From: Schmidtea nova
Taxonomy: Eukaryota
Assembly (NCBI GenBank): GCA_044892505.1
Contig: CM097882.1
Coordinates: forward strand, 142,972,001-143,036,000
Direction: 5' to 3'
Length of the DNA stretch: 64,000 nt
Under the pieces are notes generated by a model. That model saw only the letters and a list, made by a program, of their open reading frames with translations, was not told the DNA's origin and did not search any database. Position 1 is the stretch's first letter; each line of letters starts with the position of its first letter. A program made the translations under genes and the position numbers. Positions 35,918 to 63,249 of the stretch are shown here, piece after piece.

Positions 35918-37956
35918 GACATTTGAGTTTTGGTGTTATCTTATATAGTTGGAATTGAGTAATACTTCTTGCAAAATTACGGAAATAATCATTGTCACGT
36001 ATTTAAGGAAAACCTAATAAAATAATACAAGTTTAGGAAATAAAACTAAAGTTAATTGAAAAACATTAAAACATCAAAAGTGCACTTTTGTTCATTTTTA
36101 TATTTCTGTATTTTATCTTTTTCACCATATATCTCGATTCTTTATCCATGTTCTTTTCATTTCTTTCAGACTATAAATCAATAATTTGTTTTTTATTTAG
36201 CAAAATATTTATCTACCGAGTGTATTAGAAAGTCATAAACTAATCGCGATAATTGATATTAAATAAAGTTCAAAATGATATTTACCATTATTAAATGATC
36301 AAATATTTTACGTTAATCCTCAAAATATTATTTTACTTTTTCAATATAACTGTAAAATGAACGAAAGATAATGGAAGATAGATATGTTTTATTGCAAATT
36401 GAAAAGGACGAAAATATAACAGGCATTTAAGGAGTGTATGGAGTAAATATTAGCAAAATCTACTGGTTTAAATAAGGTAATGAACATTTTTAAAGAAAAA
36501 TGGATTTTTTTTTAAAAATTTAAAAGAATTTCGAATGGTCTTTTTACAAAAAGTGAAAGTATTCTGGCCTATTAGCTTCTATTCGAGCGTTTTAATCACG
36601 TGGCGGTTTCAAATGAAATGCTGTTATTTAAAGCACAAAGGTTTCATTGAACTGTTGGACAAAACCTAACTATTATTAATCACAATTGTAACAAAACACG
36701 TAGTGAATATAAATTATCAACAGAATCATCAAATAAACAAAGTTTATAACAAAAACATAAAAAAGTAATTAAAACACATTTGAACCACACAAAAATAAGA
36801 GAAACTCAATAAATTACAAATAATAAACACAAATAAAGAAAATTTAAATGTTTTATGGAAAAGCTTTCGGTTCTTGCAAATGATTTAAATATAAACTTAT
36901 TAAAATTTGATAATTTAACAAAAGGTGTATTTATACTAAAGATTTTTTAAAAATAAATTTATTTAGAATTATTAAATAAAAATGGCAATTTATTCAAATA
37001 AATAAAAGAACACCATTTTTTAAAATATATTATTGCAACTTATTTCAGCAGCTCAGCTGTCATCTTCAGGCTTTACAAAATTTCAATAAAATAAAAAATT
37101 ATCATATTTATACGTTTATTAGTGATTACATAATCACATGTGCACAATCCATTAAAACTTTTATTAACCCTAATAAAATTAATTAAAACTCTCAAAAAAG
37201 CGTGTAGATTTTGTATGTTTATTTTAGGATTAAATGATTTTATTATCAAATCATCACAATTCACACGTTCTGAATAATTTTTAAAACCCTTAGAAAGTAT
37301 GTTGAAATTGGAAATGTCAATACTTTTCTTGCAAGTCTTATTGCGCTTAATAATGTTACTCTTTCTAGCATTTATTTTTAAAATGAAATTTAATGAATGG
37401 CTACTCGATGATGACGTTAGAATGATTCATTGACGAACTTTAAGGGAAATTTTGGAATTGGAGAAAAGGCTAAGAAATTATCTTGTTAAGCAACTTTCAG
37501 TAATGAGATTGGTTTCTTACGAGGTAATTGGTGATTTTCATTTTTAAATGTGCATTAAATCAGTAATTTTTTATTCACAACATTGTTTAAGTTCAAAAAT
37601 TGATTGAAAAATAAAAATTATAAAATTGAAAAAATTGTTTGGTGTGTTTACATTTAATGTTAAGAATACTGTGTTGAATATTAGTGATGGGTCATTGACG
37701 AGTGATGAGGATTGTATTTTGAAGTTTGATCCAAATCATGGTATTAGAAATAGGATTGATAAATTTAAATTTTTTTCCCAGATTGAATGTTTGTTTGTAC
37801 TTCATCTAAAAATAAGAATATTAATTTGAATTATTTAAAAGATTTACTGAATTTTAATGTCAATGATTATTTAACTAAGAATAAAGAACAAAATATTAAT
37901 GATTTTAAAATTTTAAAAGAATTATCAAAGAAAAATATTAATATATGTGAATTTTT

Positions 37957-38154
37957 ATATCAATAATTCCCATAATGGTAAGACTATAAATCAAGGTTTC
38001 TTTAAATAAGAACACAATATTTCGGCATAGCCTTTATCAAGTGTGTATTACACATTTGATAAAGGCTGTGCCGAAATATTGTGTACTTATTTAAAGAAAC
38101 TATCCATATTTAAAGAAACTTCCATAGTCTTACCATTATGGAAATTATTGATAT
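37957..38154. repeat. 198-bp fold-back hairpin element, family shared with 3317-3673
   Basis: ATATCAATAATTCCCATAATGGTAAGACTAT / ATAGTCTTACCATTATGGAAATTATTGATAT plus a long inner stem. Confidence 0.85.
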
Positions 38155-38415
38155 TAATATTAAAAAAACGATCAAATGTAAAACAAAAAGATAATTATGA
38201 TAATATGTAAATTTGATTAGGGTAATGGTTTGGTCGTTCTTAATCATGATGATTATATAAAAAAGTTAGAAATGGTATTGTTATCTCCACAATTTGAAAA
38301 AATTGTCAGTTTTCGAAAGAATGGCAAATTAACACCTTTAAAAGTTGAAACAATGTAAATATCTCTACTTCATGACTTAATTTTAAAAAACCATATAGAT
38401 AAGGATATTGTTAGT

Positions 38416-40500
38416 TCACTTTGGCCTCAAGGATCCCAGCCTGATATGGTCTCTGAATATAGTAAAATTTCGTCCTTCCAAAATATGTGAAAAATGTTTG
38501 ATTGCGAGGTAAACTGTTAAGAGTTCGCGGTTGAAAGTTGAGTACTTTTGTTGTGCCGCGTTCACTTTTTGTGAATGTAATTCTAAAGGATCGGGCGTTC
38601 CTTGATTGATTTGGTGCAAAACAGCTCCGATTGATGTGTTCGATGCGTCTGTCGTCAATGTGATTGGAAAATCTAGTTTTATGTATGCCAGTGTATGTAT
38701 TTTTATTAGTGACTCATTAGCTTTATTAAAAGAGTGTAGAGCTTCGTTGCTCCATTTAACTAGTTCATATTTCTTGCCATTCGACAGATTTGTCATTGGT
38801 GCTAAGATTTCTGAGATTTTAGGTATGAATTTGTGGCAGTAATTTATTGTACCAAGAAAACTTCTGAGTTGTATCACCGTTTTTGGTAGTTCAAATTTTT
38901 TGATGCAATCTAGTCTTTCTTAAAAAAGTCTAATTCCATCACTTCTAATGGCATGTCCTAAAATACGAGCTTTTTCTTGAAGAAGCGAACAATTTTTATG
39001 GTTCATTTGTAAGATTTCGAAATGTAGTGAATGAAAGACCAAGTTAATATGCTTTTCATGTTCAGTGATATTTTTAGACCCTATTAAGATATCGTCTAAG
39101 TATGCGACAACAAATTTGAATTTTCCAAGTATATTGTCGATATGTCTTTGAAAAGTTTTGTGCTGCGTTCCTTAGTCAAAAAAGCATGTAGAGATATTTG
39201 TATAACCCAGTTGGTGTAATTAATGCGGTTTTGCATACATATGTGGGAATTATTGGGATTTGGTGATATGCTTTCTGTGAGTCAATCGTTGAAAAGATTT
39301 TGGCGTTCGTTAAACGACGTATAACTTCATTAATATCATTGGTTAAGAATCACGGTTACATTGTTCAGTCTCCTGTAGTCACCACATGGTCAGTTGGTAC
39401 CGTCTTTCTTTTGTACTAAATGTATTGGTGATGCCATGGTGACTGCGATTTTCTGACAATTCTTACTTTTTCGTACTTTTTCGTGAAGTAGCAATGTTGG
39501 AGTAGTGACTATTGAATGTTGGTACACTTCAGTATTATTTACGGAATTGTTCGTACTAGTATTTGTGTTATTCTAACGTTCTAAGAGAGTTTGTATATAT
39601 GGATGTGTATTTCTGTTTAAAGGTATCGTTTCGTTTCAGTTTATTTGATTTTCTGTTATTACTTTGACGGTCTGGTTGTTTGGTATAAATATTTTGCGAT
39701 TCCTTCAGTCGACTAACAGATTTTTTGTTGCTAGGAAATCGGAACCTAATATTGGACAAGTGACATTCGCAAAATAGAATGTCTATTCAAATAAGTTGGA
39801 CATTTGGTCTATACGAAATGTTATGTGTTTAGTTCCAGTAGTATGTACTGATGAGCCGTTAACTGCGCTCAATTGAAGTTTCATGTGTTTGTCTGGGTTG
39901 AAAGTGTTCGGCAGTAAGGATACTCTTGAACCAGTATCTAAAAGTAAATTTAATGGATTTGAGTTGAAGAAAGGTTATTGAAAATGGAAGAAAAAACAGG
40001 AAGTTAGAATGAAGAAGAAATAGAGGAAATTTGGTTGCCGTCGACTTCTGATGCTTGAAGTGAGAACAATACAAGTTTTTTGATTGCTCTTTCTCGAATT
40101 GTGTGAAATTATTGGTTGAATACTTACAACCTTTGAGACATTTTCTTGCTTGATTTTTGTATCGGGCATGGTAAATGCAAACGTCAAGTGTTTTGCATGT
40201 GAATAGTTTATTCTGCCATTCGCAGTCTATATTGCAAACTCTTGCATCTTTTCTAAAGGTTTGGTGAAAATGACAAAGTCGTTTATTTTTGTTGAACGAG
40301 TTGTTTCAGTTGGAACGGTTGGAGTTGTTTCGTGAATGGTTTTTAATGTGCCTATTGTTGCATATTTCTAAGGTTTCTGATATGTCTGTCGTTAAGATTC
40401 TTGCGTTGTTATTAATGAGGGCGTACTCATGTGTATTGAGGTTATATTTTTTATATAATGTATTGAATAGAATTGAAAATTTATCTTTAATATTTAACTA
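38416..40500 (-). mobile_element. Decayed Ty3/Gypsy-like element (gag, RT, RNase H; 3'-truncated)
   Basis: LRSFLGTINYCHKFIP, LTTDASNTSIGAVLHQ, KYSTFNRELL; YLDDILI near 39090; gag CHFHQTF..DARVC near 40200. Confidence 0.85.
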
Positions 40501-41774
40501 ATATTTTAATATTCGTTTGGGAATGGTCCCCAAAAACCCCGCATTTATCAAAAGTTGAATGTAAGAACTCTTACTATTATTCGTAAGTCTAGAACTTTGA
40601 TTCACCATTGTTAGGCATTGACTGATGCTCGTAAAATGTTTGCTTTTAGAATCTCGATTCAAATAAGGAACTGTTAAAATAGGTAGTAGTCCCTGATTAT
40701 CGTATTGTCTTGTAGTACGGTTTTTATTCTTTAATTAATTGTATTTCATTGGTTCTTTTTTAGTCAAAGATTGTAGCAAAGATTGTTTGTAACCATTGTT
40801 ATGTGTCAGGTTGGTTTCGTTATGTGTATACGAATTCCATTTTATGTCTTAAAGGGATATGTTTAAAAGATATTAATTTTTTACATATGCTTTAATCGGT
40901 AAGCTTATCTTTTGTGGGAACATGTTTAAAACTTTTGTTACCTTTCGATTATTAGTTAAACTTTGGTTGTTTAGTTCGCTTAGGAATAATGATTGACATC
41001 ACTTGGATATCCGTGATTGGACATAAGCCTTGTTGGTGTTGTTAGTACTTTCCTTCTTCAAATGACTAGAAACTGCTACAAATCGTTGATAATTTGCTTG
41101 TATCCATTATCTGAAGAAAATTGTTGTAAGGTGAACCTTGGATCTTTTTTAATTGAAACTGTTTTACTTTTTCTCTAAATTTTAAGTGTTTTTGCAATGA
41201 TTCACAAAGGAATTTCACTTTCATTTGATTGCAACAATAAATAATTAGACTAGAAGCAAACCAAAATGACAAGTTTGTTATAAACATAAAATTTGTAAAT
41301 TCATATTGAACATCGAAATCATAGAAAAAGTGTAAATTAAATTTCAAAATTTACTAATGTCTTATACGTTTCTATGTTTGTCGCTAACCACTCAATTGAG
41401 AATGTCTGTAAAATCAAAGTAAAATATTGAAAATTTAAAGAGGCTGATATGTTACCATATTTAATGAAAGTGTGCAGTATTTGGGGAGTAGTAAGAATCG
41501 TCGTTCCATACAAAATCATGAGCACATCATTATTAATCAACAAAATTATTGAAACAGTGAATAGAAAGTGAAAACCAGAAAAACGAATAAATAATAAAAT
41601 TCATCTAGACTGTAGTCAAAACTGAGGAAATTAAAAAGTTCATTCGTCTTTTCGGATGGAATAGGAGTATTCCTTTAATTCGGTTTTCGTCTTATTGCTG
41701 CCATCGTCCAAATGTTTTTGAATCGTTGACAAATCCATTGGATTTTTGATAATATTAAAATAATTGGATAAATT

Positions 41775-43005
41775 TTGAAAACTGTTCCATAAACTTATCA
41801 TTGAGATGTCGATATCGATTAGCCAAAATATCTCTTAAGATATTGCTGCAAGTCTTTATTTCATCTGATAATTTTGTCTTTGCTGTTTGTACTTCATCTA
41901 GTGATTCATTTTTCAGCGAAATAGAAAGACTAGGCGTAGGAGATAAATCATAACAAGATTCGGCAATACATTTATTTGTTTTCGATTTTGCATCCGGTGA
42001 TATTGAACAATTGCTTGCGTTAGTTGATGTGATATTATTTTCATATCATTCTCGCTAATTTATCTAATTTGGAATTGAATATATTTCCAAAGTCAGCGTC
42101 AACGTGGTTTTCGGTTTATCGGGATTCGAAATATTTGGAGAAATTTCTGACACCATTTTAACGTTTGTGTTAATATGGTTTAACATAGTAGTTAATATGT
42201 AATCTAGTAGTAGTATATTAATATAATATAACTAATTGTAATTTCGAATATTGATTTATTGTTTGTATATAAAATATATTACAGTTTCGTGTTTCCACGT
42301 ATTTCTTAAATAAAACATTTAAACAAGGAACTATAAAAATATACTATTACAAGAGTTGATTACACAAACTTCTCTGGCAAAACTTCTGTCTAAAACTGTT
42401 GTCTCTCCTTTTTTATAGTTTGCCATTCTCCGGCAGTTGTGGCAATTTACTTTTTTCTCCCAGTCCTGCCGCTGGCATTTCCAATTTGCTTTTGCTACGG
42501 TATTGCCCGTAGTCGTTCGGCGCTCGGGACAATTTACTTTTGTCACTGACATTTCACCATGTTTTTCCCAGTTTCCATGTTATCTTTGACATCTGTCAAG
42601 ATACCAGTATTGTTTTTGTTTACCCTATTCAGAAGTTACATGTTGTTTTTTGCATTTATTAATTATAAGTGACTTTTCTCTGTTTTATTGTTATTTTTAT
42701 TTTGTTACTACTTTCTCCTTTTTTCAATTTTTTTGCTATTCCGTTTTTTTCCTCGAGTTTCAGAATGCTAGCTCAATCATTTATTATTTTTTTCTTAAGT
42801 TTTCCAATTATTTATAATATTATTTATTATTTAGGTATCGTCAACATATTTGAAAATAACAACTCTGCTAATTCTGTGGACGAGTAAAAATTGTCTGTGG
42901 TCAGACAGTACTCCGTATCGAGCAATGGTCTCATTAGTGACATTACGACTTGGGAGGAAGCTGTAAGATGTTTGTGGCACTGGTCGAAAAGAGTATTTTT
43001 ACCCG
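41775..43005. repeat. Segmental duplication, copy 2, part 1 (includes a piggyBac fragment on the minus strand)
   Basis: Colinear with 13981-15227; ORF 42827-43345 contains SQVVMSLMRPLLDTEYCLTTDNFYSS. Confidence 0.85.
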
Positions 43006-43169: not shown

Positions 43170-46100
43170 GTTAGGCGTTTGACGGTATTATCTTGTATTT
43201 TTTTGTGTATTATTAGTTCAGATTGTGTAATAATTGTGTAGGCAAGGAATTGTAGAGCCCGAGAGAGTCTGGCGTTAGCTGTGTGCCAACACTCGGGGTG
43301 TATGCTTTGTAATGTGAAAGTGTTGAAGACAAAATAATAAAACAAATAATAAAATAAATTAATTATTCAATTAACAGTTACGATCACAATATAATGTTTA
43401 TAAAATGTTACTATAAAAAGTTACTCTAACTTTGACGTAATTGAGTCGATTTTGGAAAAGAATCTTAGGAATTTCGAAAAGAATTTAGGAATTGTAACAA
43501 TATTTAGGATTTTGATTTTTCCCTGATAGAGATCTCCCTCGAAAAATTGCTGTCTCCAAATATTGTTGGGCTAGAGTTGTTGAACCGGGAATAGCAACTG
43601 ATTCGTCTAGTTTCCTCTCGGGTTAAAATTTTTATTAAATTTTGGTGATCTTCGGACTTATTTCTTCAAGTTTGATCTTTGTCGGATTAAAATAAGTTAC
43701 TTCCAGAAAATTGGTAGTTATTTTTTCTACTTCGTTTTTTTTAATAGCCTTCTGTAGTCTCTTTTGTTATTTCAATTTCTTCGTCTTATTATTTATTCAT
43801 AAAATTTTATTGTTTTTAAAAAAAAATCAATTTTCGTATTATTGTCTATAGCTTACTATAGTTTATTACTATAGTAAGCTGTTGGATTCAAATTGAAGAT
43901 TTGAATTCTAATAATAATAATAATGATAATCAAAATAATAATAATAATAAAAATAATAATAATAAAAATTAACACAAACAAAAAAAGGGGGGGTTCCCGG
44001 TGACCGCAAAGGCACCGTCCATAACAATGACGGCGCTTACACCATCATACAAGAATAGCAATAATCATAATCATAAAAATAACAACTACCAGCAAACTTT
44101 TCATACACTACACAACTTCCCCCTTTAAAACCGGAGGTTAACATTTGAACGAAAAAGGAAAACAACACTCACGGAATCACCCCAAATTTACATTTTTTTA
44201 TAATAACAGTAACATAGAACCCTTTTTCGTTTTGTTTTGTTTTGTTTTGTTTTTGTTTTGTTTTGTTTGTTTGATTACCCTTTAACACCCGAAATTAAAT
44301 ATTTACATAGAAAAATAAAATAAATCTGTACAAATAACTATGTTGTGCCTGTGTTTTTCTTATGTATGTTTGTGCTCTTTTTTTTTACTTGAGGCAATCG
44401 CTGTAGCGTTTGTTGTATAGAGGTGTGATTATTGTGTCCTTGTCGAACAGTTTTATTGAATTTTTGTAGTTGAATGTGATGTGTTTATTTTTTGTTTGTG
44501 TTTTTGTTTGTGTCGGGGCTTTTTCTTTTGTGGGGTTGTTTGAAGTGTTTTGATTGTTGTGGTATGGTTTAATTCTTCTAAGATTGATTCTTGTTTTAAT
44601 GTTGTCTTTTATTATTGTTGCCACATTTTTGTTAATTTCCAGCAGTTTAAATGGGCCTTCGTATTTTGGTTCGAAACCTTTGGTGAAGGGCTTTTTAATT
44701 AAGACGTAGTTTGTCGTTAGAACTACTTTTCCGTCCATTTCAGAGTTCGCTCTCTTTTTTAGGATTCCTTTTAATTTCTTTTCTACTCTTTCGTTGTTTG
44801 TGTTGGTTGTTTGTTTGTTGGTTTCTGCGTTTTCTGCTGTATTGTTTTTAATTGTTGGGAGGTTTGATTCTCTGCCGAATACTTTGTATGCTGGTCTTTC
44901 ATTGTCGAATGAGTTTGGTGTGTTTCTTAGTCCCAGTAAGATTGTCGGGAGTTGACTTAGCCAATTTCTGTCGTCTGCTTTATTCTGATACTTTCCTTTA
45001 GTGTTCTGTGCAATCTCTCGATTTTTCCGTTTGCTTGAGGGTTGTAAGCGGTTGTGCGGTTTCTTTTTATGTTGTATTTATTGCACAGAGTACTGAATAA
45101 TTCTGATTCGAACTGTCTCCCTTGGTCTGTTATCAATACTTTTGGTTGACCGTAGCGAGTTATTCAATTTAGCTCAATCTTGTTACATATGTTCTGAGCG
45201 GATATTTCTTTTAGTGGGACAATTTCGAACCAGTTTGTTTTTCTGTCGATGATTGTGAGTAGGTAGTTGTACCCGTTGTTTGGTAGTAACGGTCCTACTA
45301 TGTCAATGTGAATCATCTCGTAAGGTTGGCTGCTTGGAAAGTATACTTTTTGTGCTGTTGGTTTCTTTGATATTTTGTTGATTTGGCACTTTTTGCATGT
45401 TTTTACGAAACTTTTGATTTCCTTTCTCATATTTGGCCATATGTATCTGTTGTGGATTATTTCGAAGGTGGCTTTGCTTCCTGGATGACTGATGTCATGT
45501 ATTTTAGAAATACACAATTTCCTAAACTCTTTTGGTAAAAGTATTCTTGGTGTGTTTTCATTGCTGACATCGTACCAAAGTTCATTGATTTTCTCTAATT
45601 TCAGGCTGTGTTTTAAAGGAAGTTCTTTTAAGGTTTCTGATTGTTTGTTTTTAATTTTTTCGTTTTCGAATATTTCGCCAAATTCAAGTGCGTTTATGTC
45701 TGTTTCTATTCTTGACAGAGTATCTGCTGCGATATTTGCGGCGCCAGCGACATAATTAATTGTGCAATTAAATTGTGATATATAATTTAATTGTCTTATT
45801 TGTCGTGGTGATGGGTTTTTCATTTGTATCGCGTTTGTTAACGGTTTGTGGTCCGTATATATTTTGAAGTTTCTTGCTTCCAGTAAGTGTTGGAAGTGAT
45901 TGATGGCTTCATGTATCGCGAGTAATTCTCGGTCAAAGGTTGAGTACCGTGTTTGATGTGTTTTTAGTTTTTTAGAGAAAACCCCGATTGGCTGTTTGCC
46001 GTATTCGTTATCTTGATATAAGGTTGCGCCCATTGCATATCCAGAGCAGTCTGTTGCTAGGTTGTAGTCTAGTTCTGGATTTGGATATCCGAGTAATGTT

Positions 46101-47459
46101 GCTTGAGATAAGCTTGTTTTTACTTTTTCAAACTGTTTGGTTGTTTGCTTGGTCCAGTTAATTTTAATGTTTCTTCTTGTTTTGATCAGGTCGTTTAATG
46201 GCGCTAACAATTCACTGCAGTTAATGATGTACGCATGGTAAAAGTTTACCATTCCCAAAAATCGTCTTAACTCTCTGTTTGTGTTTGGTAGTTTGAACTC
46301 TTGTATCGTGCTTATTTTCTTGTCTATTGGCTTCGTGCCTTTTTCGTCCAGTGTGTGTCCCAGAAAATTTATTTTTTTTTCAAGAATTCGCATTTTTGAA
46401 TGTTTATTTTGAGATTTGCTGAGTCCAGCGTTTCAAACACCTTTTCAATGTCTTTTAAATGAATTGTTTTGCTTGGACTTGCTATGAGGATGTCGTCCAA
46501 ATAAGCTATAGTATTCTGGTTATTTTTCAGAGTCTTGTCCATAAATCGTTGAAATGTTGCAGCTGCGTTTCGCAAACCAAATGGCATTCTGTTGTATTCG
46601 AACATGCCGATTGGTGTTACGATTGCTGTTTTTTTAATGTCTTCGTTCCTGATGGGTATTTGGTGGTAAGCCTTCTGTAAATCTATTTTCGGGAAAAGTC
46701 TTGCACCTTTAAGTCTGTTTATTATGTCTCTGATGATAGGCAGTGGGTAGTTGTCAGTAGGGGATAGTGAGGACACGGGGCCAAGCCATTTATCCTTAAA
46801 CTGTATATATTAATTAATAATTATACAGTTCCCCCCTAAAATTTTTTTATTTTGTTTACATGAAGTGAATTTTTTAATTTTTTAATTTTGTTTAAATGAA
46901 GTCATTTTATTTATTTTTATTTATTAATTTTATTATATTTATTAATCTTAATTAATTTTAATTTAATTTACTTTTAATTTATTTTTAATTTATTTTTATT
47001 TAATTTATTTTTTGTAGAGGACTTTTGATCTGGTTATTTTGTATAGGAATTTTACTCTGGTTTTTTTGTATAGGATTTTCTATTCCGAGAATTTTCTTGT
47101 GCAAAAAGGGACTCTGGGTTTTTTGTACAGGAATTTTTTATACATCGATTTTTGGTCTCGTATTTTGAATAGAATTTTTGGTCTGATATTTTTGCACAGG
47201 AATTTTCTATTCCGAGATTTTTTTTTCGGGCAAAAAGGGACTCTGGTAATTTTGAATATGATTTTTGATCTCGTATTTCTGTATAGGATTTTTAATCTAG
47301 TATTTTTGTATAGGATTTTTAGTCTGGTTATTTTGAATAGGAATTTCTACTCCCAGATTTTTCTCGGGCAAAAAGAGACTCTGATAATTTTAATATGATT
47401 TTTGATCTTAATTTTTGTATAGGATATTTAGTCTGGTATTTTCGAAAACAATATTTTGG

Positions 47460-47995
47460 TCGGGGAAATTCCAAAAAATCAAAAATGCTCAGAATCAAAT
47501 AATTTTTATACCAATCTACTGAGAATCGGGTGGCGAATAAAAAGGGTTAAAAAGTAAAAACCTGAAAATTTGACTTATCCGACCCAATTTTTATACGTAA
47601 AAAGGGTCAACTCGGAGAAAATCAAAAAATTAAAAAGAGGTCAGAATTCAATAATTTTTTATACCAATCTACTGAGAATTGAAAGGCAAACAATAATGGT
47701 CAAAAATTAAAAAACATGAAAAATTGATCTTATCCGACCAATTTTTACACGTAAAAGGGTCGACTCGGGGAAATTCCAAAAATCAAAAATGCTCAGAATT
47801 CAAAATTTTTTTATATCAATCTACTGAGATTCGAATGGCGAACAAAAAAGGGTCAAAAATAAAAACATGAAAATTTTGACTTATCCGACCAATTTTACAT
47901 GTAAAAATGATCGACTCGGGGAAATTCCAAAAATAAAAAATGCTCAGAATCAAATAATTTTTATACCAATCTACTGAGAATCGAATGGCACATAA
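47460..47995. repeat. About 150-bp tandem repeats (~4) in the left TIR; ~3 inverted copies at 49940-50410
   Basis: ATGCTCAGAATCAAATAATTTTTATACCAATCTACTGAGAAT...GACTTATCCGACC units; one copy also at 1928-1975. Confidence 0.85.
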
Positions 47996-48839
47996 AAACG
48001 TGGAAATATTTAAAAAATATTTAAACTAAATAATTAAATTTAAATAAATTGATGATAATTAAATAAAAAAGTAAATAAATTCTATACGAATTTCAAAACT
48101 CAGTAAATAATTCACTCATTATTTTGTATTGAATTTATCGAGTAAAATGGTACATTAAATAAAAGCATGGAAATAATAAGTAAATTAAAGTTAGAATTTT
48201 AAATTAATTTGTACTGGATTTATGAAAAATGGTAAAGTAAATAAATTAAAGATAGAATTTTAAAAATAATTATGAATTTAAAGATAAATAGAATTATAAG
48301 AAAATTAAGAATAAATAAGTAAATTAAGAAAGACGTGAGTTTTATTGTAATAATTTTAAAATGAATTGGTTTTAAATGAACTTTTTAAGGTAATATTTGA
48401 AAAATGTGAGAATAATTAAATATTTTTGAAATTTTTTAAAGTAAAATTTTTTAACAATAAAGTCACTGTTTAATTTTTTAACAATAAAATCAATGTAAAA
48501 TTTTTTAATTAATAAATACAAAGTAAATATTTTTTCACAAGTAAATATTTTTCACAAGTAAAATTTTTAACTAATAAATACAAATCTAACTGTTTTTCAA
48601 TATGATGTTTTTTAAGCAAATGATCAAATAACAACAAATAAATGTAGTAAATAAAACACATGTAAATATTGAATTTATTTAGAATAAAAATAGTTATTAA
48701 ACAAGAGTTGTTACAATTTTGTATACTAAGTTAAAAAATAACGATTAATGACATAAATTTTTAAAAATAAACGTAATAATTGAAAATATGGAAACAAGTA
48801 AATAATAATAATAATAATAAGTAACGTCTATCAATCAAA

Positions 48840-49760
48840 CTAAGTACCTACAATAAACCGATCAACTAACTAATAATCTCATTACACACACACAAATCAA
48901 CCACTGACTAGTAACTGATCAAATGTCAAATGACTCTATCCACAAATCACCAACCAACTACTTACTTAACAGTTACCAACTGACTATGTATTAACCAACT
49001 AGGAAAATTGTTCCATGTGTCAATCAATTATCTCTTTCTATTAACTAAATATCAAATTATCCAATCCCTTTAGCTAACAAACAGACCAATTCCTTACTTA
49101 CTAACTAGTTCTATACATCAACCAACTACTTCTATACATTAACCAACTAGTTCTATACCAAACAACTAACTACACTAACTAACTATACATACTAACCAGT
49201 AACTAATCTCTTACTTACTAACTAGTTCTATACATCAACCAACTAACTCTTCTCATTAACCAACTTACTCTATTCACAAATCACCAATCAACTACTCTAA
49301 CTAACTAAATATACATACTACTTCTTAACATTAACCAACTACCACTATTCACAAATTACCGATCAACTACCCACTCTATACATACTAACCAGTCAGCAAT
49401 CAAATACTTACTTACCAAGTAGTTTTACACATTAACCAACTAACTAACTAAACACTCTAACTATCAACCAATTCCTTACTTCCCAACTAACTCTTCTCAT
49501 TAACCAACTAATTCTATTCATTAATCCTATACTAGCCAACCAGCCACTCACTCTACACACTATCCATCTAAGTACTTACCAACTACTTCTACACATTAAC
49601 CAACTAACTCTATTCATAAATCAACAACAGACTAGTTAATTATTAAATATCAATTGATTCTATCCACAATCTACTAGTTAAATCAACTAATTGGATACCA
49701 ACTGACTCTATATATTAAACAAATAAATCTTCACTCTAAGGAAATTGTTCCACGTATCAA
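48840..49760. repeat. Degenerate (AACT/AACC)n-like, strongly G-poor strand-biased repeat tract
   Basis: Recurring TTAACCAACTAACT and TCTATACATCAACCAACT; G almost absent on the + strand. Confidence 0.8.
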
Positions 49761-50896
49761 TAAACTCTTCGCATTAACTAAATAAGATATTTAAAACTAA
49801 CTGATTCTAAATGTCGTGTCATAAAATTAAATTTATTACTTTGAATAATTGAATTAATCTTTAGTTGATTATCAGTTTTTAAAAAGGCGTACTAATATCT
49901 ACGTAGTTAAAATGAAATTTTTTATTAAATAAAGTTCTTAAAATTTTGAGTCGACCCTTTTATGTGTAAAAATTGGTCGGATAAGTCAAAATTTTCATGT
50001 TTTACCTGTTTGACCCTTTTTTGTTTGCCTTTCAATTCTCAGTAGATTGGTATAAAAAATTTTGAATTCTGAGCATTTTTGATTTTTTGGAAAGTCACCG
50101 AGTTGACCCTTTTTACGTGTAAAAATTGGGTCGGATAAGATCAATTTTTCATGTTTTTTAATTTTTGACCATTTTTGTTTGCCTTTCAATTCTCAGTAGA
50201 TTGGTTCAAAAAATTATTGAATTCTGACCACTTTTTAATTTTTTGATTTTTCCCCGAGTTGACCCTTTTTAAGTTACAAATTGGGTCGGATAAGTCAAAT
50301 TTTCAGGTTTTTACTTTTTAACCCATTTTTGTTCGCCATTCGATTCTCAGTAGATTGGTATAAAAATTATTTGATTTTGAGCATTTTTGATTTTTTGGAA
50401 TTTCCCCGACCAAAATATTGTTTTCGAAAATACCAGACTAAAAATCCTATACAAAAATCAAGATCAAAAATCATATTCAAAATTACCAGAGTCCCTTTTT
50501 GCACGAGAAAAATCTGGGAGTAGAAATTCCTATTCAAAATAACCAGACTAAAAATCCTATACAAAAATACTAGATCAAAAATCCTATACAAAAATACTAG
50601 ATCAAAAATCATATTCAAAATTACCAGAGTCCCTTTTTGCCCGAGAAAAAAATCTCGGAATAGAAAATTCCTGTGCAAAAATATCAGACCAAAAATCCTA
50701 TTCAAAATAACTAGACCAAAAAATCCTATACAAAAATACGAGACCAAAAATCCTATACAAAATACGAGACCAAAAATCGATGTATAAAAAATTCCTGTAC
50801 AAAAAACCCAGAGTCCCTTTTTGCCCGAGAAAAATCTCGGAATAGAAAATCCTATACAAAAAAACCAGAGTTAAAATCCTATACAAAATAACCAGA

Positions 50897-51083
50897 NNNN
50901 NNNNNNNNNNNNNNNNNNNNNNNNNNNNNNNNNNNNNNNNNNNNNNNNNNNNNNNNNNNNNNNNNNNNNNNNNNNNNNNNNNNNNNNNNNNNNNNNNNNN
51001 NNNNNNNNNNNNNNNNNNNNNNNNNNNNNNNNNNNNNNNNNNNNNNNNNNNNNNNNNNNNNNNNNNNNNNNNNNNNNNNNNNN
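50897..51083. other. Assembly gap inside the right TIR
   Basis: N run. Confidence 1.
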
Positions 51084-52289
51084 CAAAAAAAATTAGGGGG
51101 GTGGGTGGGATAAACTGTATAATTATTACTTAACATATACAGTTTAGGGATAAATGGCTTGGCCCCGTGTTCTCACTATCCCCTACTGTTGTCTGGTTCT
51201 GTGATTTTGTTGAGCATTCGGTAGTCACCGCAAGCTCTCCATTCCCCGTTTGCCTTTTGTTTGAGCATGAGTGCTGGGGACCAATCAGAGTTCGAGTGAG
51301 TTACTATTTTGTTTTCTAGTAACTCCTTGAAAATTTCGTTTGTAATTTTTGTATTTTGTGAATCTAGTTGTCTCACCTTTGCATGCACTGGGTTTCCGTT
51401 TGTTATGATTGCATGTTCCGTTACTGGTTCGGTGAGTTTTTCGAATTTTCCCAGTAGTTTATTTATTTCTGGGTCATGATTCAATTTTTGTTTTTGTTTA
51501 TTGTTAGGTGGACCCGTTTGGATAACACTGATATCTATTTTTGGTTTTCCTCCGCTGCTCGAGTTGTGCTGTGGTGTTGTAGTATTAGTATTATTTTCTA
51601 ATATTTGTTTGTTTTTACAATCCACTAGGAGGTTGTAATTTGTTAGGAAGTCTGTTCCTATTATTGCTTGTTGGACCTCAGCTATGGTGAATGTCCAGTT
51701 GTAGTTTTTTTGTTTATGTTTAGATTTATTGTTTGTTGCCCGAAAGTTTTTATGTTTGTGCCGTTAGCTGCTGTTAATGGTTTTTCTGTTTTGTTGGCAC
51801 TTTTATACATAGAATGGGGCAGTAGTGAGATCACCAAGACGGTGTGTATTAAAAAATCTATGTTATTGCTGTGCACCCAAAATGTGTTATTTATGTCACC
51901 TGATGTGGGTGCTATCATTGGTGACCTTATTGGTTTCCCTGCTCTGTTTTATTGAATTCGCAGGGTTGTGTGCATATAAATGCTTTTTCACCGAATTTGT
52001 TGTGGAAGTAACAGAGGATTTTGTTTAGGTAATTGTTTTTTGAATCTCTTTCTGGGCTTCTGTTTCGGTAATTGTTGCCTCGATTTGGGGAGTTCGACCG
52101 GTTTCTGTAATTGTTGTTTGGTGATTGGCTGCGGCTGTAGTTTTGTCTGTTGTATTCTGGGGGTTGATTGTAGCATTGTCTGTTTTGACCGTCTGATGGT
52201 AGGTCTCTGTTGTAGTTGTATCTTTTGTAACTATCGTATGATTGGTTTGAGTTAAAGTTTTGTTTATTATATCGTTGAGGTTATAATAT

Positions 52290-52790
52290 CATGAGGTTGA
52301 CTCACATAACATGTATGTCTTCACGCTGAATCTCAATCTTTTGAGTGACATGTACTGTATCCGTCCTAGACGCCCTTTGTATAACATCAGACTTTCGTAT
52401 ATGCTTACATTTCTTTCGAGAACACACCCTTGTTGAAATTTTTTTGCAAGTATTGAAACACAGGCCATATTTTATTCAGTTTAGGATTGGAATAGGTTGA
52501 TTCATGGAATTCAGCATTATTGCTAAATTACAATACAAATTTAGCAATAAAACCACCTGTATGAAAGGGTGCATGCAAAATACGAAGTTTCGAATATCTT
52601 ACATTTGGTCCAGTGCATTTTCTCTTTTGCTTTCTTTACAACACTTTGCACTAAAATGATCGCAAAATATATTCTCATTTCGTTTAATATGAATTTTATA
52701 ATTTTAAGAATTTTCAGTTTGTTTCATATTATTTTCTAAAGTTCCTAATTTTATTCCTAAAAATTTGAGTATTACTTAATATTTTAATTA
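52290..52790 (-). pseudogene. piggyBac transposase fragment (paralog of 15333-15760)
   Basis: [32 protein letters not shown]. Confidence 0.8.
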
Positions 52791-52941
52791 TCATTCTATG
52801 AAATTTCAAAATTAAATTATTTATATTTTTTCAATAATACATATTTATTTAGTTGTTCTCTGATTTAGTCTTACTGTTCTCTTAAGATTTTCATGTAAAT
52901 TCATGTGAATTTTTAATATTATGTTTTATTTTAATTATATA

Positions 52942-53657: not shown

Positions 53658-54265
53658 ATTATATACCTATTGTAAGATAATTTTAGAGGATTTATTAGTC
53701 GATTATGTGAGATTTTAATTATAAACTTCTTGTGCACGATCAGATTTTGGGGTAATCTTGTCATTTAAACAAATTAAATTTTTGATTTCACCAAACAATA
53801 TTAAATAAAGAATTTTAGCTGCAACTAAATTATCAATTATGCAAATGAAATTAAATCTGTTTTTAGTAATTGTTTGTTACAATTTAATATTGTTAATAAT
53901 ATATTAAATACTATGTTAATAAATCAACATTCTATCTTTGAACAAGGGGTTTGACCCTTACAAAATTAACTAAAATTTTTACACCATTTACAAAAATATC
54001 AAAAAATATGAGAAAGAAAATAAAAACTAAAATGAAAAATTACTATACATTAACAGTTAATGCAGGAGGACCCATGCATTAACCAGTAAAATACAATATT
54101 GAATCTTTAATTAATTGAATTTATGAATTTTATGAGTCCTGTCCCAAAACACAACACCAATAAAGAACGCAATTATTGCTAATTAAATATATTTGATATC
54201 GAAAGATAAAACTAAAATAGGAATTAATTTGTGTTCGGTTCATGAAAATATAAAATTATAATTTC

Positions 54266-54889
54266 TCAGTGATTCGACAAGTCTCTTTCCGCTTCATCTA
54301 AATCCCAATTGCACATTGACAACGTGTGGATTGAGAGCTCTTTCGCGTATCCCATGCCAACCAAATGGCTGATCTTTGATTCGAAATCATCAAATTCATC
54401 TTTTCTTGGACCTCCTGCATAAAAATGATTCCAAAATGCTGCAGTTTTATCAAATAGATCTCTGTCATTTATATATTGTTTAGCAACCATTGCATCTTGA
54501 GGATCATTCGGTTCTGCTTGAATGAGTAACGAAGATATTCCGACCATAACCGTCAATAGATTTTGAGAAGTTGTCCATTTATCACTCAGTATATCAAGAC
54601 AAATACACCCAGTTGCAGAACTGATATTCGGATGCCAAACCTTTGTGATGAAATAAGCCCGCGGAGGCTTTGTTGGATATTCTTTGGGAAGGTTGAAGTC
54701 GACTTCGTAAGATCCCTCTTGATATGGAGAACCTGGAAATCCTGTAAAAGTTCCAATGAGTTTAGAGGTATCGTTTTGTGCATTTAGTCGAACCGAAATC
54801 CCTTCTGGATTTCTTTTATGAATAAGATTCAATTCATTAAGAATTCTTTTAGTACCGAAGTTTCTAGGATTAAGCATTTCAATTGACAT
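54266..54889 (-). CDS. UBE2K: UBE2K/Ubc1-like E2, intronless, copy 2
   Basis: 207 aa; differs from copy 1 at FNIP/FNLP and DAIV/DAMV; flanks 53903-55365 match 34910-36393. Confidence 0.92.
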   Translation of the reverse strand: MSIEMLNPRNFGTKRILNELNLIHKRNPEGISVRLNAQNDTSKLIGTFTGFPGSPYQEGSYEVDFNLPKEYPTKPPRAYFITKVWHPNISSATGCICLDILSDKWTTSQNLLTVMVGISSLLIQAEPNDPQDAMVAKQYINDRDLFDKTAAFWNHFYAGGPRKDEFDDFESKISHLVGMGYAKELSIHTLSMCNWDLDEAERDLSNH

Positions 54890-55365
54890 GGCATTTGAGT
54901 TTTGGTTTTACCTTATATAGTTGGAATTGAGTAATACTTCTTGCAAAATTACGGAAATAATCATTGTCACGTATTTAAGGAAAACCTAATAAAATAATAC
55001 AAGTTTAGGAAATAAAACTAAAGTTAATTGAAAAACATTAAAACATCAAAAGTGCACTTTGGTTCATTTTTATATTTCTGTATTTTATCTTTTTCGCCAT
55101 ATATCTCGATTCGTTATCCATTTTCTTTTCATTTCTTTCAGACTATAAATCAATAATTTGTATTTTATTTAGCAAAATATTTATCTACCGAGTGTATTAG
55201 AAAGTCATAAACTAATCGCGATAATTGATATTAAATAAAGTTCAAAATGATATTTACCATTATTAAATGATCAAATATTTTTCGTTAATCCTCAAAATAT
55301 TATTTTACTTTTTCAATATAACTGTAAAGTAAACGAAAGATAATGGAAGATAGATACGTTTTATT

Positions 55366-57171
55366 CAGTCCCGGATTACCCATTAGGCAGAGTAGGCAAC
55401 TGCCTATGGGGCCCGCTACTTTTAGGGGACCCATGAGACCGTGACGAAAGAATTTTTTTACTTACTTATTGTTAAGAATAGAGGCGACTGACGACGCTGA
55501 CGTCATACAATAATGTTTTCAATTTAGTCTAGTAGTTAAGTTAAATTAAATTCAAAAATTATAAATAAAATTTATAGATCCTAGATAAAATGTCGATGAA
55601 AGAGAGAAAGCACGAAATCGGAGCAGAGAAGCAAAGTAAGAAAAAGGAAGCCACAGTGAAGCTTCAAGAAAAAATTAAAATGACCCCGTCGCTTTTCCAA
55701 CTTGGCTTCACTCGTTCATCTGCAAAAGATCAAGCGTGTGGTAGTACTGCCGCCGGCAGTGCCAGCGATGTTATGGCGACAGACTTGCCTTCCGAAGTGA
55801 CTGCTGTACAAATGGCTGAGCATCAGGACACCATAGATGAGACTGCCAAAACCGATCAGGATTTTAATGTGATTGCTCCGGAGATGCAAATTCAGGGACC
55901 GGAATTTCAAAAAGACGTCGGATTATGGGAAAACAATAATAACGCAGTGCAAGAACATTGGTGTAGTAGAGATCCTGTAGAATGCCAGCATTTTGATTGT
56001 GATTTTTCGGCTTCACGTAGGCAGTACGATGATGGTACTGCACGATATTTTACTCGTTCCATGATGTTTCGGAAGCATGTGAATGGAGAACAAATTAAAC
56101 GGGAATGGTTGATGTACTCGCCAACTTCTTGTAATGTATACTGTTTTCCCTGCGTCTTATTTCGTGATGCAGGTAAAGGAATTCAAACTCAATTCTGTGA
56201 TATATTTTCTGACTGGAAAAATGCTTCTCAGCGCATCCAGATGCACGAGAGCAGTGAGATGCACCGAGCATGTATGCAGCCGCTTATTACTAGGCGAAGT
56301 GCAGTATGTCGCTTAGACTGCTGTTTACAAATTCAATTCTACAAAGAGAAAGAATACTGGATAAAGATTCTGCAGTGAGTAGTGTCAGTTGTCAAGTTTC
56401 TGTCGTCGCGTGGATTAGCCTTTCACGGTGAAAATGAAAATATAGGATCCAAATATAACGGAAATTACTTGGGCGTTTAAGAGTTGATTGCGCAGAACGA
56501 TTTTTGCCTGAGTTCTCATTTAGCCAAATATGATAACCAAGGCCGAGAAAGACCGTCCTACCTTTCATCTACCTTTCAACTAAAAATCCAAACAACGACA
56601 GAATTTTGCGTATGCTCGCATGCGGCGGTTGAGCTCAGCAGATAGTTTATCCAATATCAGTAAATAGGTTTCAATCATGAACTTGTCTTTTCCAAGAAGT
56701 ACAACTTCTTTAGCGTCACCATCGGCGTGATGTCGTTTTTGCTTGCGAAAACCATTATAATCGTCATAGTACTGTGCTTCAACTTTCTCGTTCGCCTTCT
56801 CTTCGTATTCATCGAACAAATTTCTCTGTGATGTTAGAAAATCTGACAATGATTGCAATATATTGACGGCCGTCTGGAGTTCTATCGTTTCTTTCTGTTG
56901 TGATTTACTGACTGCATTGATTCTTTCCAAGATGACAGCCCAAAAGACTGACATAACGGCTGTTTCCTTCCTCGACAGGTCTTTTAACAATCATTGTCTC
57001 TGACTTTTGCTTCACATCTTCTGCAATGACCGACAACGCCTTCTGGAAGCTGCTGTAACCACAAGACAGCGTCTTGGTCGCATCCGCCCGCTCACACCAC
57101 CTTGTTCCAGTCACTCTTTTTAAAACGAGTCCAGAGCCAGCTTCATTTTCAAGACATTTGGACATAACCAC
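55366..57171. mobile_element. hAT (ZMYM1/TTF-zinc-finger type) element: N-terminus on +, C-terminal part inverted on -
   Basis: Left end CAGTCCCGGATTA after GTTTTATT; REWLMYSP..VYCFPCVLF..DWKN..HESSEMH (55590-56378 +); RPSYLS at ~56552-56568 +; GTRWCER and C-terminal pieces at 56580-57171 -. Confidence 0.85.
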
Positions 57172-60100
57172 AGTAGGTAGTTAATGGACCTTAAACTCAC
57201 TTCAAATCCTACCCACCCCTCCTCCCCTAGAAAATATTTTTTTTCTGAGTTTACGGGCCACTATGTTTTTTCTGGCCTTTTTTGAATTGGAAATTTATTG
57301 TCGGTCTTTTGTACAGGGATTTTGAGCTCCGAGATTTTTCTCGGGCAAAAAGGGACTCTGGTATTTTGTACATGGAAATTTGGTCGAGGTTTTTTGTACA
57401 GCATTTTATACTCCCAGATTTTTCTAGGGCAAAAGGGACTCTGTTATTTTTGAATTAAATTATAAATTTTAATGGTAAATAAAAACACGTGTAAATTTTT
57501 TAAACAAGTAAAATACATTGAAATTATTTTGAATAGGATTATCAATTCCCACAATTTCTCGGGCAAAAAGAGACTCTAGTAATTTTTATTCAGAAATTTT
57601 CAAGAAATTTTTATGGTTTTTATTTCTATGGTAAAATACAAAAACACAAGAATGACATAATATTTAAAATTTAAGAAAAAAAGGGTAAAATCAAGGCAAT
57701 GTGAGAGTTGAAATGACACAATATTTAAAATTTAATAAATAAAAAGGGTAAAATTAATTTTTTGGAGAAATCAGAGTTAGTAAATTTTTAAATATAAAAT
57801 TAAATTCTTTTTCACAAAAAGAAATTATTTTTTTCACAAAATTCTTTTTTAAACCAATAAAAGTCTTAACTAATAAAAAGAAAAAAATTTTAACTAATAA
57901 AAAGAAACATTTTTAACTAAATTTTATTAAAATAAATCTTCTTCATCGTCTTCTTCTGTAACTTGATTGAATTCTCTGTCATTAATGTCTTTATAATGCC
58001 CGAATGCACAACTTTCATTTTTTCCCACCCACACCCTTTTATAATCATTATTAGTTAGTGCAATTTTTGAATTTTTACAGATATATAACTGATGATTTTT
58101 TGTACATATTCTAAATTGTGGTACACTAATCTCTGAGTTATTTAAATAACATTTTACATATGAATCGTGGTCTAATTTAGTATCCTTTAATTTTGCTCAC
58201 TAAGCTTTTGTAGTATTAGTTTTATCCAACAAGCTGTAACATTTCGGTCTAAGGAAAATCCACTCATCATATCCTTCACCCTTACTTTCATCTTTGAATT
58301 TCCCAATAACAGAATCCAATTTCTTGCTGTATAGTGGGTGATCAGTTGGATAATTTGATGTATCTAACAAGTTATCATTTTTCATTTCATTTAATAATAT
58401 TTCTAATTTTTAATTTTTAATTTCTAGAAAAAACGAATCTGTATCGCCTGCTACAATATTTATCTGACAACTATATTTGTCGCGATATTTTTGTAAATCT
58501 TTGTATTGTAATTCGTACATTCAAAGTTTTGATAAATCAAGCACTGATTGTCCAATATAACTCGGTCTATCTAAACAAATCGAATCTGGATTTAATAAAG
58601 CAGCAACTAAATTATCGTCGATTTTAATAGATTTTTTGAAAGAAGGTTTTGATGTATATTTAACTAGTTGAACATAATCTTAAATTCATTCTCTTTTTAA
58701 GATTTTCCACTGTTTTGCCATACAGACTATTATTGAGTAATTTGAAAAAGTTTTTATCTAAAGTATTAATCCTTTTCAACCGCAATTCAGTGTTGGTATC
58801 TATATACTTTTTGAAAATTGGAGATTGTTTAAATTTAACTTCTTTATTTATCTTTGTGATCTTAACACCAAGTTCTAAATATAATTGAAGTAATCGCCAA
58901 TGAATTATATAATTATTTTTAGGGTAATGAGTCAATAGTAATTTTTCTACCTTTGAACCTCGTGGTTTCATTTTTTCTGCAGCTACCGGTAAATCATCCA
59001 AGAAATCATGAATTTCAGCAGGTATTTCCAAATCTACCTCTAAAGTGTAACCGTAAGATATAGATTCAAGATTTAGATTAATACAGTCATGCAAAATATT
59101 ATCTAAATTATCAGTCACCCAACTAAATTCTCCACAAGGTAAAGGTTCACTTAAAGCCCATCCGTAAAGATTATTTATATCGATATACAATAATTCTGTA
59201 TTTTCATCGGTTTTAACGAAGTGTTTATTTACAAAAGTCAAACCTCCTCGAATTCCCCCTTCATAAAAGCAAAACATTTCATTTTCTGTTATTAATTCTA
59301 TTGGTTCATCTAAAGTCATTAAAGAAGATGACTAAGACATGCCAGGAATACCGAAGTAATTCAATGGCTCTAATCTATTGTGAGCTATAAATTTGGTTCG
59401 AAATTGCTGAAAGTAATCAGCCAAAAAAAAGCAATCAAGTTTCAAGTAAATCATCATATTATCTAAAAGAGTAACACAGTTTGTTTCTGTCCAAATCAGT
59501 TGTGCCATTTCATATTCTTCTTTTGAAACACCTTTCCAGATTGGTGGTAACTCATAAGTATTTTCAAATACTTCTAAACTTGTAGCAAAAGTTATACGGA
59601 AAAATACCCTTTTCAGAAACTATAGTTCCATTAAAAACCGAATTTGTCAAAGGTAAAGATTTCAACGTTTTCACTGCCTTTGCCAAAGAATCATTCACAA
59701 ACTGGTATGAGTCTATAAATCTTAAACTAATCTTGCCAACATGAGCTATCAATGAAATAGATTTTTCAGTTGTAATAGGTATTCAATTCAATGACCAATT
59801 CTTGAACTTATTTAATCCGTGTTTAAGAATATGGTGCATATCGTATCCTTTCAAGTTATGAAAAACTATTGGCAAAGACTTATTGATTTTTCTATTAATG
59901 TTACACGTTTTACATGCTGCATCTAAATATTTCCCAGTGAAATGGTCGTGGTCTCTTACAGGATCTACGATTTTGTTCATGCAAAGGTAACAAGTGGTAC
60001 CATTTTTAAATTGTTCCTCTTCAATTTCAGTCAATCTATTCATTTGTTTGTTTCCATTTTTATTGTAATATGGAAGAACTTTTAATAAAGCAATATCTTC

Positions 60101-61714
60101 AACCGCTTTTAAAAAATCATCTACACAATTTAGTCCAATAAATTGTTGGTAAGATTTTGTCCCATCAAAGTTATTTATTAACAAAAGCCCCGCAGAAATA
60201 GGCAAGTGTTTCTGATAATATACATCATCCTTTGATAAAAAAGCTTCAAAGTCTGCATAAATAACGAATGGTGGGGTAACAGTTTTTGACCAATCAGTAA
60301 ATTTTAGCATTTTATTTTCCGGGAAAGTGTATAATGTTGTTCCTAGTTGATTTTTTCTGCATAAAATCTCATGTTTTTCCAACGATAATTTATTTGGGAA
60401 ACCATTTAAACATCTAATGCACCATTCGCTTCTTATCCTAGTAGTACAATAAAGGCTTTGGTGACAATTCATTAAACGTTTTAAATTTATAATAGGTACA
60501 TAATGATATTTTCCCCTTCATTTAATAACAATAAATTTATAGTTTTTCCTTCTATTACTTTTGACCGATGAATGATATCCAAATGAGAATGCTTTAAAGT
60601 ATAATCATCTTGTTCTTCATTAATTTCATTATTATAACATAGTACATTTATGATCAATCCTGGATTCTTTGCCTTGAATTTTCTGATACTATTTAATTTC
60701 ATGGGCATGTCTGATATATTATATTTGAGCTCTGACAAAAAATTTGTATATTTTGATACTCTTTCTCTATCTCTAGATATTGAATCATATTTTGATATAG
60801 CTAAAATGCTATATAAAAAACATAAATTATCCTTATTATCGATGTTTAATATACATCTCTTTCCTTTTAATACTTCAGGAGTTTTTACAATGCTTCTACC
60901 TGCTAACCTACTTATATTGGATATCTTAGTTACAACAAAACTTATTTCAGTAATACGATTAAGTACCCAACTGCTACCTAATTCCGGAAATGAAGTTATC
61001 TTTTCATTCAATTTTTTAATTCCCTCTTCGAAAAATGTCTGTGTCAGAGGTTTTGCGCTATTGGAAATATTGTTTCTTTTAATTTCTCCATCTTTCTCAA
61101 ATTCAATACAGATACCAAATTGTATCTTCACATAGCCTAGTTCGTTAATTATTTCTATTAATTTATTAATTAATGATTGTGGAAAAAAATTTGCTTTATA
61201 TTTAAATCACTAGTGTTAATTTTTAAAATCCTATGCGATCCATTTAAATCACTTTCAATGACAGGGAGAGGTTCTATAACACTTCCTCCAGTTTGATAAA
61301 AACCAACGTTCCAAAAATCTTCAATCTCTTCCCCCGCTTCAATTAAAAGCTTGTTTTCGTCCGCTTCCAACTCTTCCATCGCTTCTAATAAAATCTTGTC
61401 TTCAATATCTTCTTGTAAATTTTGTGATTTCTTGATTATTTCTATGTTCAATTTAATCTTTTTATTATTTATAGGGTTTTGAGTCAAGTTTGGTCTTTTA
61501 AATAATTTTATTTTCTTAGACCTATATTCATTTAAATGATCCTTATGTTCATCGTAAAAATTTTGATATGTAAGGGGTTGGGAAGTTTGGCATACAAGAC
61601 ATATATAATAGCGAATTTTATAATAAGAGTGTCCATAATATTGCTCCATTGATCGATGACAATTATCGATGTGGTCAGTTGAAAAGCAATAATTTGGGTA
61701 TAAAACACCTATGA

Positions 61715-63188: not shown

Positions 63189-63249
<61 letters not shown>

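Follow-up and report, generated by a model that had tools for sequence, protein, structure and literature searches.

Gene-less families of Polintons, the elements also termed Mavericks, exist in Repbase. Polintons encode the polymerase pPolB and an integrase (PMC5499653); the target-site duplications, end motifs and terminal inverted repeat (TIR) lengths of vertebrate Mavericks are documented in PMC8097293, PMC3014272 and 10.1101/2023.08.22.554363, and the account of Polinton replication is still a sequence-derived model (legend of Fig. 4 in 10.64898/2026.07.28.741278). Here we analyzed a 64,000-bp stretch of Schmidtea nova DNA (GenBank assembly GCA_044892505.1, contig CM097882.1, positions 142,972,001 to 143,036,000; denoted the window and numbered from its first base). 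We confirmed a 4.4-kb insertion with Polinton-type ends in the reverse transcriptase (RT) of a Gypsy retrotransposon, noticed earlier in a preliminary description made from the sequence alone. The element is very probably a non-autonomous Polinton/Maverick derivative; its structure can be read directly, and the integrase that moved it would be encoded elsewhere. Because the Polintons of PMC5499653 encode both pPolB and an integrase, neither this element nor the pPolB-bearing palindrome found in the same window is an autonomous Polinton.

The element begins with AGTAG at 46756, ends with CTACT at 51187 and is flanked on both sides by GTTGTC, a 6-bp duplication without mismatch (for six matching bases, the base composition gives a probability of 1.5 × 10−4). 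It interrupts a minus-strand Gypsy pol gene, whose upstream half ends with ...ITEPDN and whose downstream half starts with DNYPLP. Searched separately, the two RT halves map to adjacent residues of Ty3 RT (4ol8_A); the doubled dipeptide (DN) is therefore the target-site duplication itself. The TIRs measure about 1.25 kb, a length inferred across 187 right-arm bases given as N in the assembly, and are 88.7% identical over 952 columns (66 gap columns; ∼42 substitutions in 886 aligned bases), with four mismatches in the terminal 75 bases. The longest clean ATG frame encodes 81 amino acids and is built of 27-bp repeats, stop-free frames of 126 and 167 codons have no Pfam or PHROG match, and these repeat-derived frames were accordingly rejected as genes. 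No frame for pPolB, integrase, capsid, ATPase or protease was found in the element, and a scan of 4,158 of its 4,432 bases gave no match to Rfam. The termini, duplication, split RT, TIRs of ∼1.2 kb and lack of a protein-like frame given in the preliminary description were all borne out.

Support for the assignment to the Polinton class comes from the ends, which belong to the same class as those of the intact pPolB palindrome, a recent element with a 6-bp duplication of its own. In each arm of this palindrome, an outward-pointing polymerase frame is followed by a 144-bp array and then by an inner AGTAG end (24298 and 25087); the outer ends carry the full AGTAGT. No long frame besides pPolB is present in the palindrome, and capsid, ATPase and protease frames were not found in it. 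The two inner ends enclose a core that lacks a target-site duplication because its flanks are mirror images of each other. A head-to-tail junction at the inner ends was considered and rejected, the inner ends not being preceded by CTACT. A pattern combining AGTAG with a C-tract selects 8 of the 88 AGTAG sites in the window, and all eight are element ends.

It is very improbable that the element should be assigned to a different superfamily of cut-and-paste transposons that make 6-bp duplications, or that the palindromes are chimeras of amplification or assembly, the resemblances being secondary in either case. The element carries no gene by which it could be classified and the assembly has five N gaps, one of them within the right TIR, but the ends and subterminal motifs are common to pPolB-bearing elements. 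Moreover, the intact palindrome is flanked by a perfect duplication, its arms differ by six substitutions in about 6.8 kb and by one 71-bp repeat unit, and an older relic of the same layout is found near the start of the window.

This relic shows, in order, a left-arm array, a core, a truncated mirror arm, the plus-strand 3′ end of a pPolB gene, 49-bp repeats and an outer end at 3239. By its layout, 1108–3239 is what deletion has left of a palindrome from a second lineage. Its outer end lies 878 bp past the pPolB fragment, as compared to 931 bp from the same point of the intact palindrome, and the score of the truncated mirror arm of the 1561 end was reached by none of 1000 shuffles. The last array unit matches the last unit of the intact palindrome at 75 of 91 positions, versus 60–68 for its other seven. 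The inner end is located 151 bases past the last array anchor in the relic (1561) and 150 bases past it in the intact palindrome (24298). This positional homology rests on the array anchor, since the similarity between the lineages is weak in the 60-base linker taken by itself (54 of 2000 shuffles reach its score). We also considered 1561–3239, with its 28-bp inverted pair, as one clean insertion and rejected it: the flanks match at one of six bases (CGGGAG versus ATATAT) and no arm sequence occurs past 3239. The right end of the 1561 unit is deleted, so that a duplication cannot be read there; the flank mismatch and the position homologous to 24298 do not fit an ordinary independent insertion at 1561.

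Both ends of the gene-less element resemble the inner end of the relic, as had been claimed for its first ∼80 bp. The left end is 90.7% identical to 1561 over 75 bp (E = 2 × 10−22) and the right end 89.0% over 91 bp (E = 2 × 10−27); 71 of 80 bases are alike (z about 18–19, 60 shuffles), and the similarity thus reaches far beyond AGTAG. The claimed repeat match near 1928–1975 also held: the 153-bp repeat of the element is 84.6% identical over 78 bp to the relic core at 1912–1989, and a 23-base motif of this unit has eight matches in the window, seven in the element and one at 1949 (chance mean 0.01). Judged from these similarities, the core of the relic resembles a shortened member of the family to which the element belongs.

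The terminal 19 bases of the element occur four times in the window (1561, 3239, 46756 and 51187; chance 0.01). The fourth copy, at 3221–3239 on the minus strand, had been overlooked and is the outer end of the relic, to which the element end is identical at 19 of 20 and 25 of 30 bases. By comparison, the element end agrees with the inner end of the intact palindrome at 11 of 20 bases (z about 1.5, 60 shuffles), which is at chance level beyond AGTAG, and with its outer end at 8 of 20. Because the 19-base end also forms the outer end at 3239 and the end of the intact core is unlike the element, the "core-type" end of the preliminary description is, by sequence, a lineage-type end used at inner (1561) and outer (3239) positions and no separate class. 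What stands of the claim that core-type ends are integrase substrates is that a sequence known from an inner end also borders an insertion which is free and has a perfect duplication; from this we infer that it can serve as an integration substrate. The ends are, however, not specific to the inner position.

The body of the element resembles the outer arms. The subterminal motifs said to be common to both were found: GGCAAAAAGRGACTCT has 13 matches in the window, six in the element TIRs and seven in the outer arms, and none in either core (chance mean 0.08). All 13 matches of GGCAAAAAG lie within the element TIRs or the outer arms and none in either core. A 19-base motif located just past the polymerase stop codon is present without mismatch at 18299, 31068 and 48560, in the same order counted from the end. 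From its end inward, the element thus presents the GGCAAAAAG repeats first and the post-stop motif second, as an outer arm does. Its ties to the relic core consist only of the terminal 75–90 bp and one 153-bp unit.

These comparisons bear on the proposal of two mobile layers, in which the core forms a structural part of the palindromic dimer, the integrase cuts at the inner ends and the core moves as a satellite, so that the 4.4-kb element would be an escaped core that gained outer-arm repeats later. The ∼90% match to 1561 over 75–91 bp is longer than the ∼25 bp shared with the outer end at 3239, the 153-bp unit is common to the element and the relic core only, and inner ends occur at a homologous position in two lineages. 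We nevertheless consider an escape of this kind unlikely. The 19-base end doubles as an outer end, the element has no match to the intact core, and it is five to seven times longer than either core (4.4 kb versus about 0.6–0.8 kb), with outer-arm motifs that follow the outer-arm order and are absent from both cores. Within the 64-kb window there is neither a free copy of the intact core's end nor a core-sized free unit with a target-site duplication. Of the two-layer proposal, the match to 1561 and the conserved inner position therefore stand, whereas nothing shows a core leaving its palindrome.

The cores differ between the lineages, their ends agreeing at 12 of 20 bases and their interiors being unrelated. 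With the inner ends at 151 and 150 bases from the anchor and the adjoining array units alike at 75 of 91 positions, this contrast could mean that the centre is an exchangeable slot, into which satellites are targeted past the 144-bp array, or from which an old core is excised and the gap repaired from another member. Replacement by gap repair is known for P elements. We regard such a slot as quite improbable. It would be deduced from two centres, the other insertions found in the window have flanks unlike the central site, and the outer ends of the two lineages are equally diverged (9 of 20 bases alike), so that fast evolution of ends after common descent fits as well.

We favour, by a modest degree of confidence, the view that the cores are satellite-type elements and that the palindromes arose by fold-back copying. 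The gene-less element would derive for the most part from a pPolB element's outer end and would have retained cis signals only, namely the AGTAG ends and the subterminal repeats. Very probably, a retroviral-type Polinton integrase from an element outside the window then inserted it into the Gypsy RT, giving the 6-bp duplication. The cores, in turn, would be reduced satellite-type elements at the centre of pPolB palindromes. During protein-primed strand-displacement copying, the two ends of a core would form an internal inverted repeat at which the displaced single strand folds back, and the polymerase would recopy one arm, yielding an arm-core-mirror arm structure with no duplication at the inner ends. 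A nested satellite would in this way lose its target-site duplication once the mirror arm replaces one flank. The distribution of mismatches in the intact palindrome is consistent with such a course: the first 64 bases of the core TIR contain five mismatches compared to the six substitutions in ∼6.8 kb of arm (Fisher p = 2.6 × 10−8), and arm copying would hence stop near the inner ends. A satellite moving into the centre is at least as likely as a core escaping from it. Different cores at the same base in lineages with 58% identical polymerases might most simply go back to a single nested insertion in an ancestor, followed by an exchange of its ends.

Several points weigh against this account of the element and the palindromes. 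There are only two centres to compare, one of them in a relic that has suffered deletions. Two random insertions would hardly hit the identical position in two distant lineages, and nesting by itself does not account for this coincidence. The excess of mismatches near the centre could simply mean that correction is poorer wherever a long stem reaches its inner end, and in the intact palindrome one mismatch between the arms sits 39 bases outward of the inner end. The post-stop motif is AT-rich and was chosen after its BLAST match had been seen (E = 1.6 × 10−5). The element begins with AGTAGG and not with the (AGT)2 motif of PMC8097293. Finally, no integrase of the family was found in the window or on the short contigs of its 22 closest relatives.

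A more far-reaching proposal would be that pPolB-only palindromes retain, besides their outer ends, a further functional pair of Polinton ends at a constant inner position, and that this inner pair both primes the fold-back and is cut by the integrase. The central cassette would then swap with, and give rise to, free gene-less satellites; carriers and satellites would exchange ends, and both would borrow the integrase. We put this forward tentatively and consider it rather doubtful.

Positions of the features in the window (a dot marks features listed without orientation; TSD, target-site duplication)
Feature	Positions	Strand	Remarks
Gene-less element with Polinton-type AGTAG...CTACT ends	46756–51187	.	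4,432 bp
TSD GTTGTC, left copy	46750–46755	+	
TSD GTTGTC, right copy	51188–51193	+	
Left TIR of element	46756–48016	+	About 1.26 kb; first 75–90 bp common with 1561, first 19–25 bp with 3239
Right TIR of element	49948–51187	-	50897–51083 is an assembly gap (N)
27-bp-based subterminal repeats containing GGCAAAAAGRGACTCT	47029–47461	+	Common with outer arm ends; mirror copy 50408–50896
153-bp tandem repeat	47460–48016	+	About 3.5 copies; mirror copy 49948–50409, 3 copies; one partial unit in relic core 1912–1989
AT-rich block with exact 19-base motif (48560)	48471–48584	+	In pPolB arms found directly after the stop codon of the polymerase
Unique interior of C/A-rich 21-bp-based repeats	48891–49784	.	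No match elsewhere in the window
Gypsy pol, upstream part up to start of RT	51188–51763	-	Ty3 RT residues 72–128
Gypsy RT, downstream part	46372–46755	-	Ty3 RT residues 129–254; then RNase H and integrase zinc finger in another frame (45167–46432)
Intact palindromic element	17386–31925	.	14.5 kb; TSD CGTGTA; two outward-pointing pPolB genes; arms 99.8% identical
pPolB, open frame	18364–22170	-	1,268 codons; mirror copy 27215–31021 broken by a stop at 29651–29653
Core of intact palindrome	24298–25087	.	790 bp; inner AGTAG...CTACT ends; about 70-bp imperfect TIR; 120-bp repeats
Third pPolB arm	57172–64000	.	Outer end at 57172; 96% to intact pPolB arm, frameshifted; exits the window before array and centre
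Relic arm, diverged 144-bp array	1108–1500	+	Last unit closest to last unit of intact palindrome (75/91)
Relic core	1561–2097	+	Inner left end 1561, partial 153-bp unit, truncated mirror arm at about 2054–2097
3′ fragment of diverged pPolB	2098–2361	+	Right-arm orientation; 58% amino acid identity over 88 residues to intact pPolB
Outer right end of relic	3212–3239	-	19/20 first bases as at 46756; preceded by 49-bp repeats

The polymerase of the window is, by homology, a Polinton-type pPolB. Homologues of its 1,268-codon frame are annotated with PF03175 and an endonuclease VII domain (precomputed domains); endonuclease insertions in pPolB have been published (PMC11161782). An alignment-based scan yielded relatives at no fewer than 77 metagenome loci (from the best 80 of 488), 13 viral loci and 33 genome loci. 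In a FastTree phylogeny (42 C-terminal sequences, 712 columns, midpoint root) the polymerase groups with relatives of 57–64% identity, inside a clade (support 1.0) that includes a locus encoding an rve integrase (L029). Among the other frames of distant relatives, rve was detected in five of eight loci scanned and capsid or ATPase matches in three of eight. The distant relatives are tightly packed, unlike the closest ones (L001–L020, L024 and L041; 44–62% in the best segment), which are found on short contigs whose flanks are AT-rich and contain repeats and in which no Polinton gene is recognizable; five other frames on the closest metagenome loci have no Pfam or PHROG match. The closest relatives possibly represent a wider pPolB-only clade. 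The 22 closest metagenome loci among those listed are 1.0–4.5 kb long and extend at most about 1.2 kb upstream of pPolB, where 2.1 kb would be needed to reach an inner end.

A single-protein scan of the viral contigs revealed no relative with a palindromic layout. Two matches of the 19-base end in viral contigs (L124 and L125) were taken as chance, there being no similarity past the motif. Of seven CTACT sites downstream of pPolB in close relatives, only the one in L017 is end-like: a candidate outer end (AGTAGT, minus strand) at 1645–1818, about 1.1 kb past the pPolB stop and preceded by 27- and 21-bp repeats. A cluster denoted P0003 has a 61% identical pPolB on ENA contigs of 11–16 kb, which might display the complete layout. 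Four sequencing runs from a single study contain 0.37–0.50 of the words sampled from the region; they may stem from the source sample itself and are not counted as support.

The third pPolB arm of the window contains an extra 1.5-kb segment (61715–63227, 520 bases of it N) between the polymerase and its upstream region, with a 241-codon stop-free frame that lies on the plus strand, where the list of open reading frames gives minus, and that has no Pfam match; the outer end of the arm at 57172 adjoins hAT-like frames. Upstream of pPolB, a 43-bp tandem repeat with CCAAT is present at 22672–22757 and 63747–63848, and by eye a similar-looking stretch occurs at the 5′ end of L010. The host of the gene-less element is identified as Ty3/Gypsy by the order of RT, RNase H and integrase and by its Ty3-like RT (RVT_1 match, E = 1.8 × 10−28). 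It has several frame breaks, and no long terminal repeat pair was found for it in a self-comparison of the window. A repeat that is whole at 13975–15839 has a second copy (41769–43005 and 52282–52795) split by the Gypsy region, and one piece of it matches DDE_Tnp_1_7.

The AT-rich sequence also holds pieces of IS4/piggyBac type and, together with the Gypsy and MULE pieces, would suit the genome of an invertebrate animal. An uninterrupted ubiquitin-conjugating-enzyme frame (PF00179) is present in two 96.8% identical copies (34910–36393 and 53903–55365), one of which adjoins a 315-bp, 98% palindrome at 34752–35066. Short palindromes were further observed at 3545–3673, 9576–9778, 16482–16577 and 37950–38161, with 3507–3673 resembling 37950–38179. 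The frames at 10678–11157, 38416–38919, 33550–34546 and 55578–56990 include a piece of a MULE transposase and a further RNase H of Gypsy type; two others in this list, among them 55578–56990, have no Pfam match and look like pieces of hAT transposase.

As a by-product of Polinton activity, the insertion is to be expected, and the layout surrounding it matters more. From palindromes with a marked inner boundary one could read off the points at which fold-back copying begins and ends. Provided that the inner ends are indeed used and exchanged, they offer a concrete route to palindromic and gene-less Polinton families, and free versus embedded ends would tell how far into a TIR copying and the integrase act.

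The rearrangement products of adenovirus vectors are palindromic. In these vectors, non-terminal inverted repeats lead to replication-induced rearrangements (PMC2518115). They resemble the pPolB palindromes in being protein-primed linear DNA with an internal inverted-repeat pair, and thereby suggest a route to the arm-core-mirror arm structure; they are, however, engineered, not integrated and devoid of an integrase, and constitute an analogue of the mechanism and not a relative. The nested virophages and Polinton-like viruses of Halocafeteria (10.64898/2026.07.28.741278) also insert into each other and into retrotransposons, but they bear genes, are flanked by target-site duplications and have terminal palindromes, and the accessible text reports no conserved inner ends.

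With the autonomous Polintons/Mavericks (PMC8097293, PMC3014272, PMC5499653 and 10.1101/2023.08.22.554363) the element shares the 6-bp duplication, the AG...CT ends and a TIR length within the reported 46–1,447 bp, and its neighbouring relatives carry pPolB. It differs from them in having no pPolB, integrase, ATPase, protease or capsid gene, in its size (4.4 kb versus 12.7–24.6 kb), in ends that match five of the six bases of the (AGT)2 motif, and in TIRs that are about 5% diverged. Also comparable are gene-depleted Polintons, namely the butterfly elements without polB (10.1101/2025.02.07.637071), which are mobile with Polinton ends without core enzymes, and the pPolB-plus-TIR loci of C. elegans (10.1101/2024.01.15.575659), which lack INT and likewise have Polinton ends without core enzymes. 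The TIRs of the butterfly Polintons extend to duplicate genes, as the palindrome arms duplicate pPolB. The present element, in contrast, is wholly non-coding and has ends that recur at an internal position within a pPolB palindrome, a situation undescribed in the accessible parts of those accounts. Neither conserved inner ends nor pPolB palindromes were found described in the literature searched, the scope of which did not extend to subscription journals, Repbase, supplements and the 2006 founding paper. Taken together, the element is ordinary in kind, and what distinguishes this locus from the known systems is the conserved, position-fixed pair of inner ends in pPolB-only palindromes.

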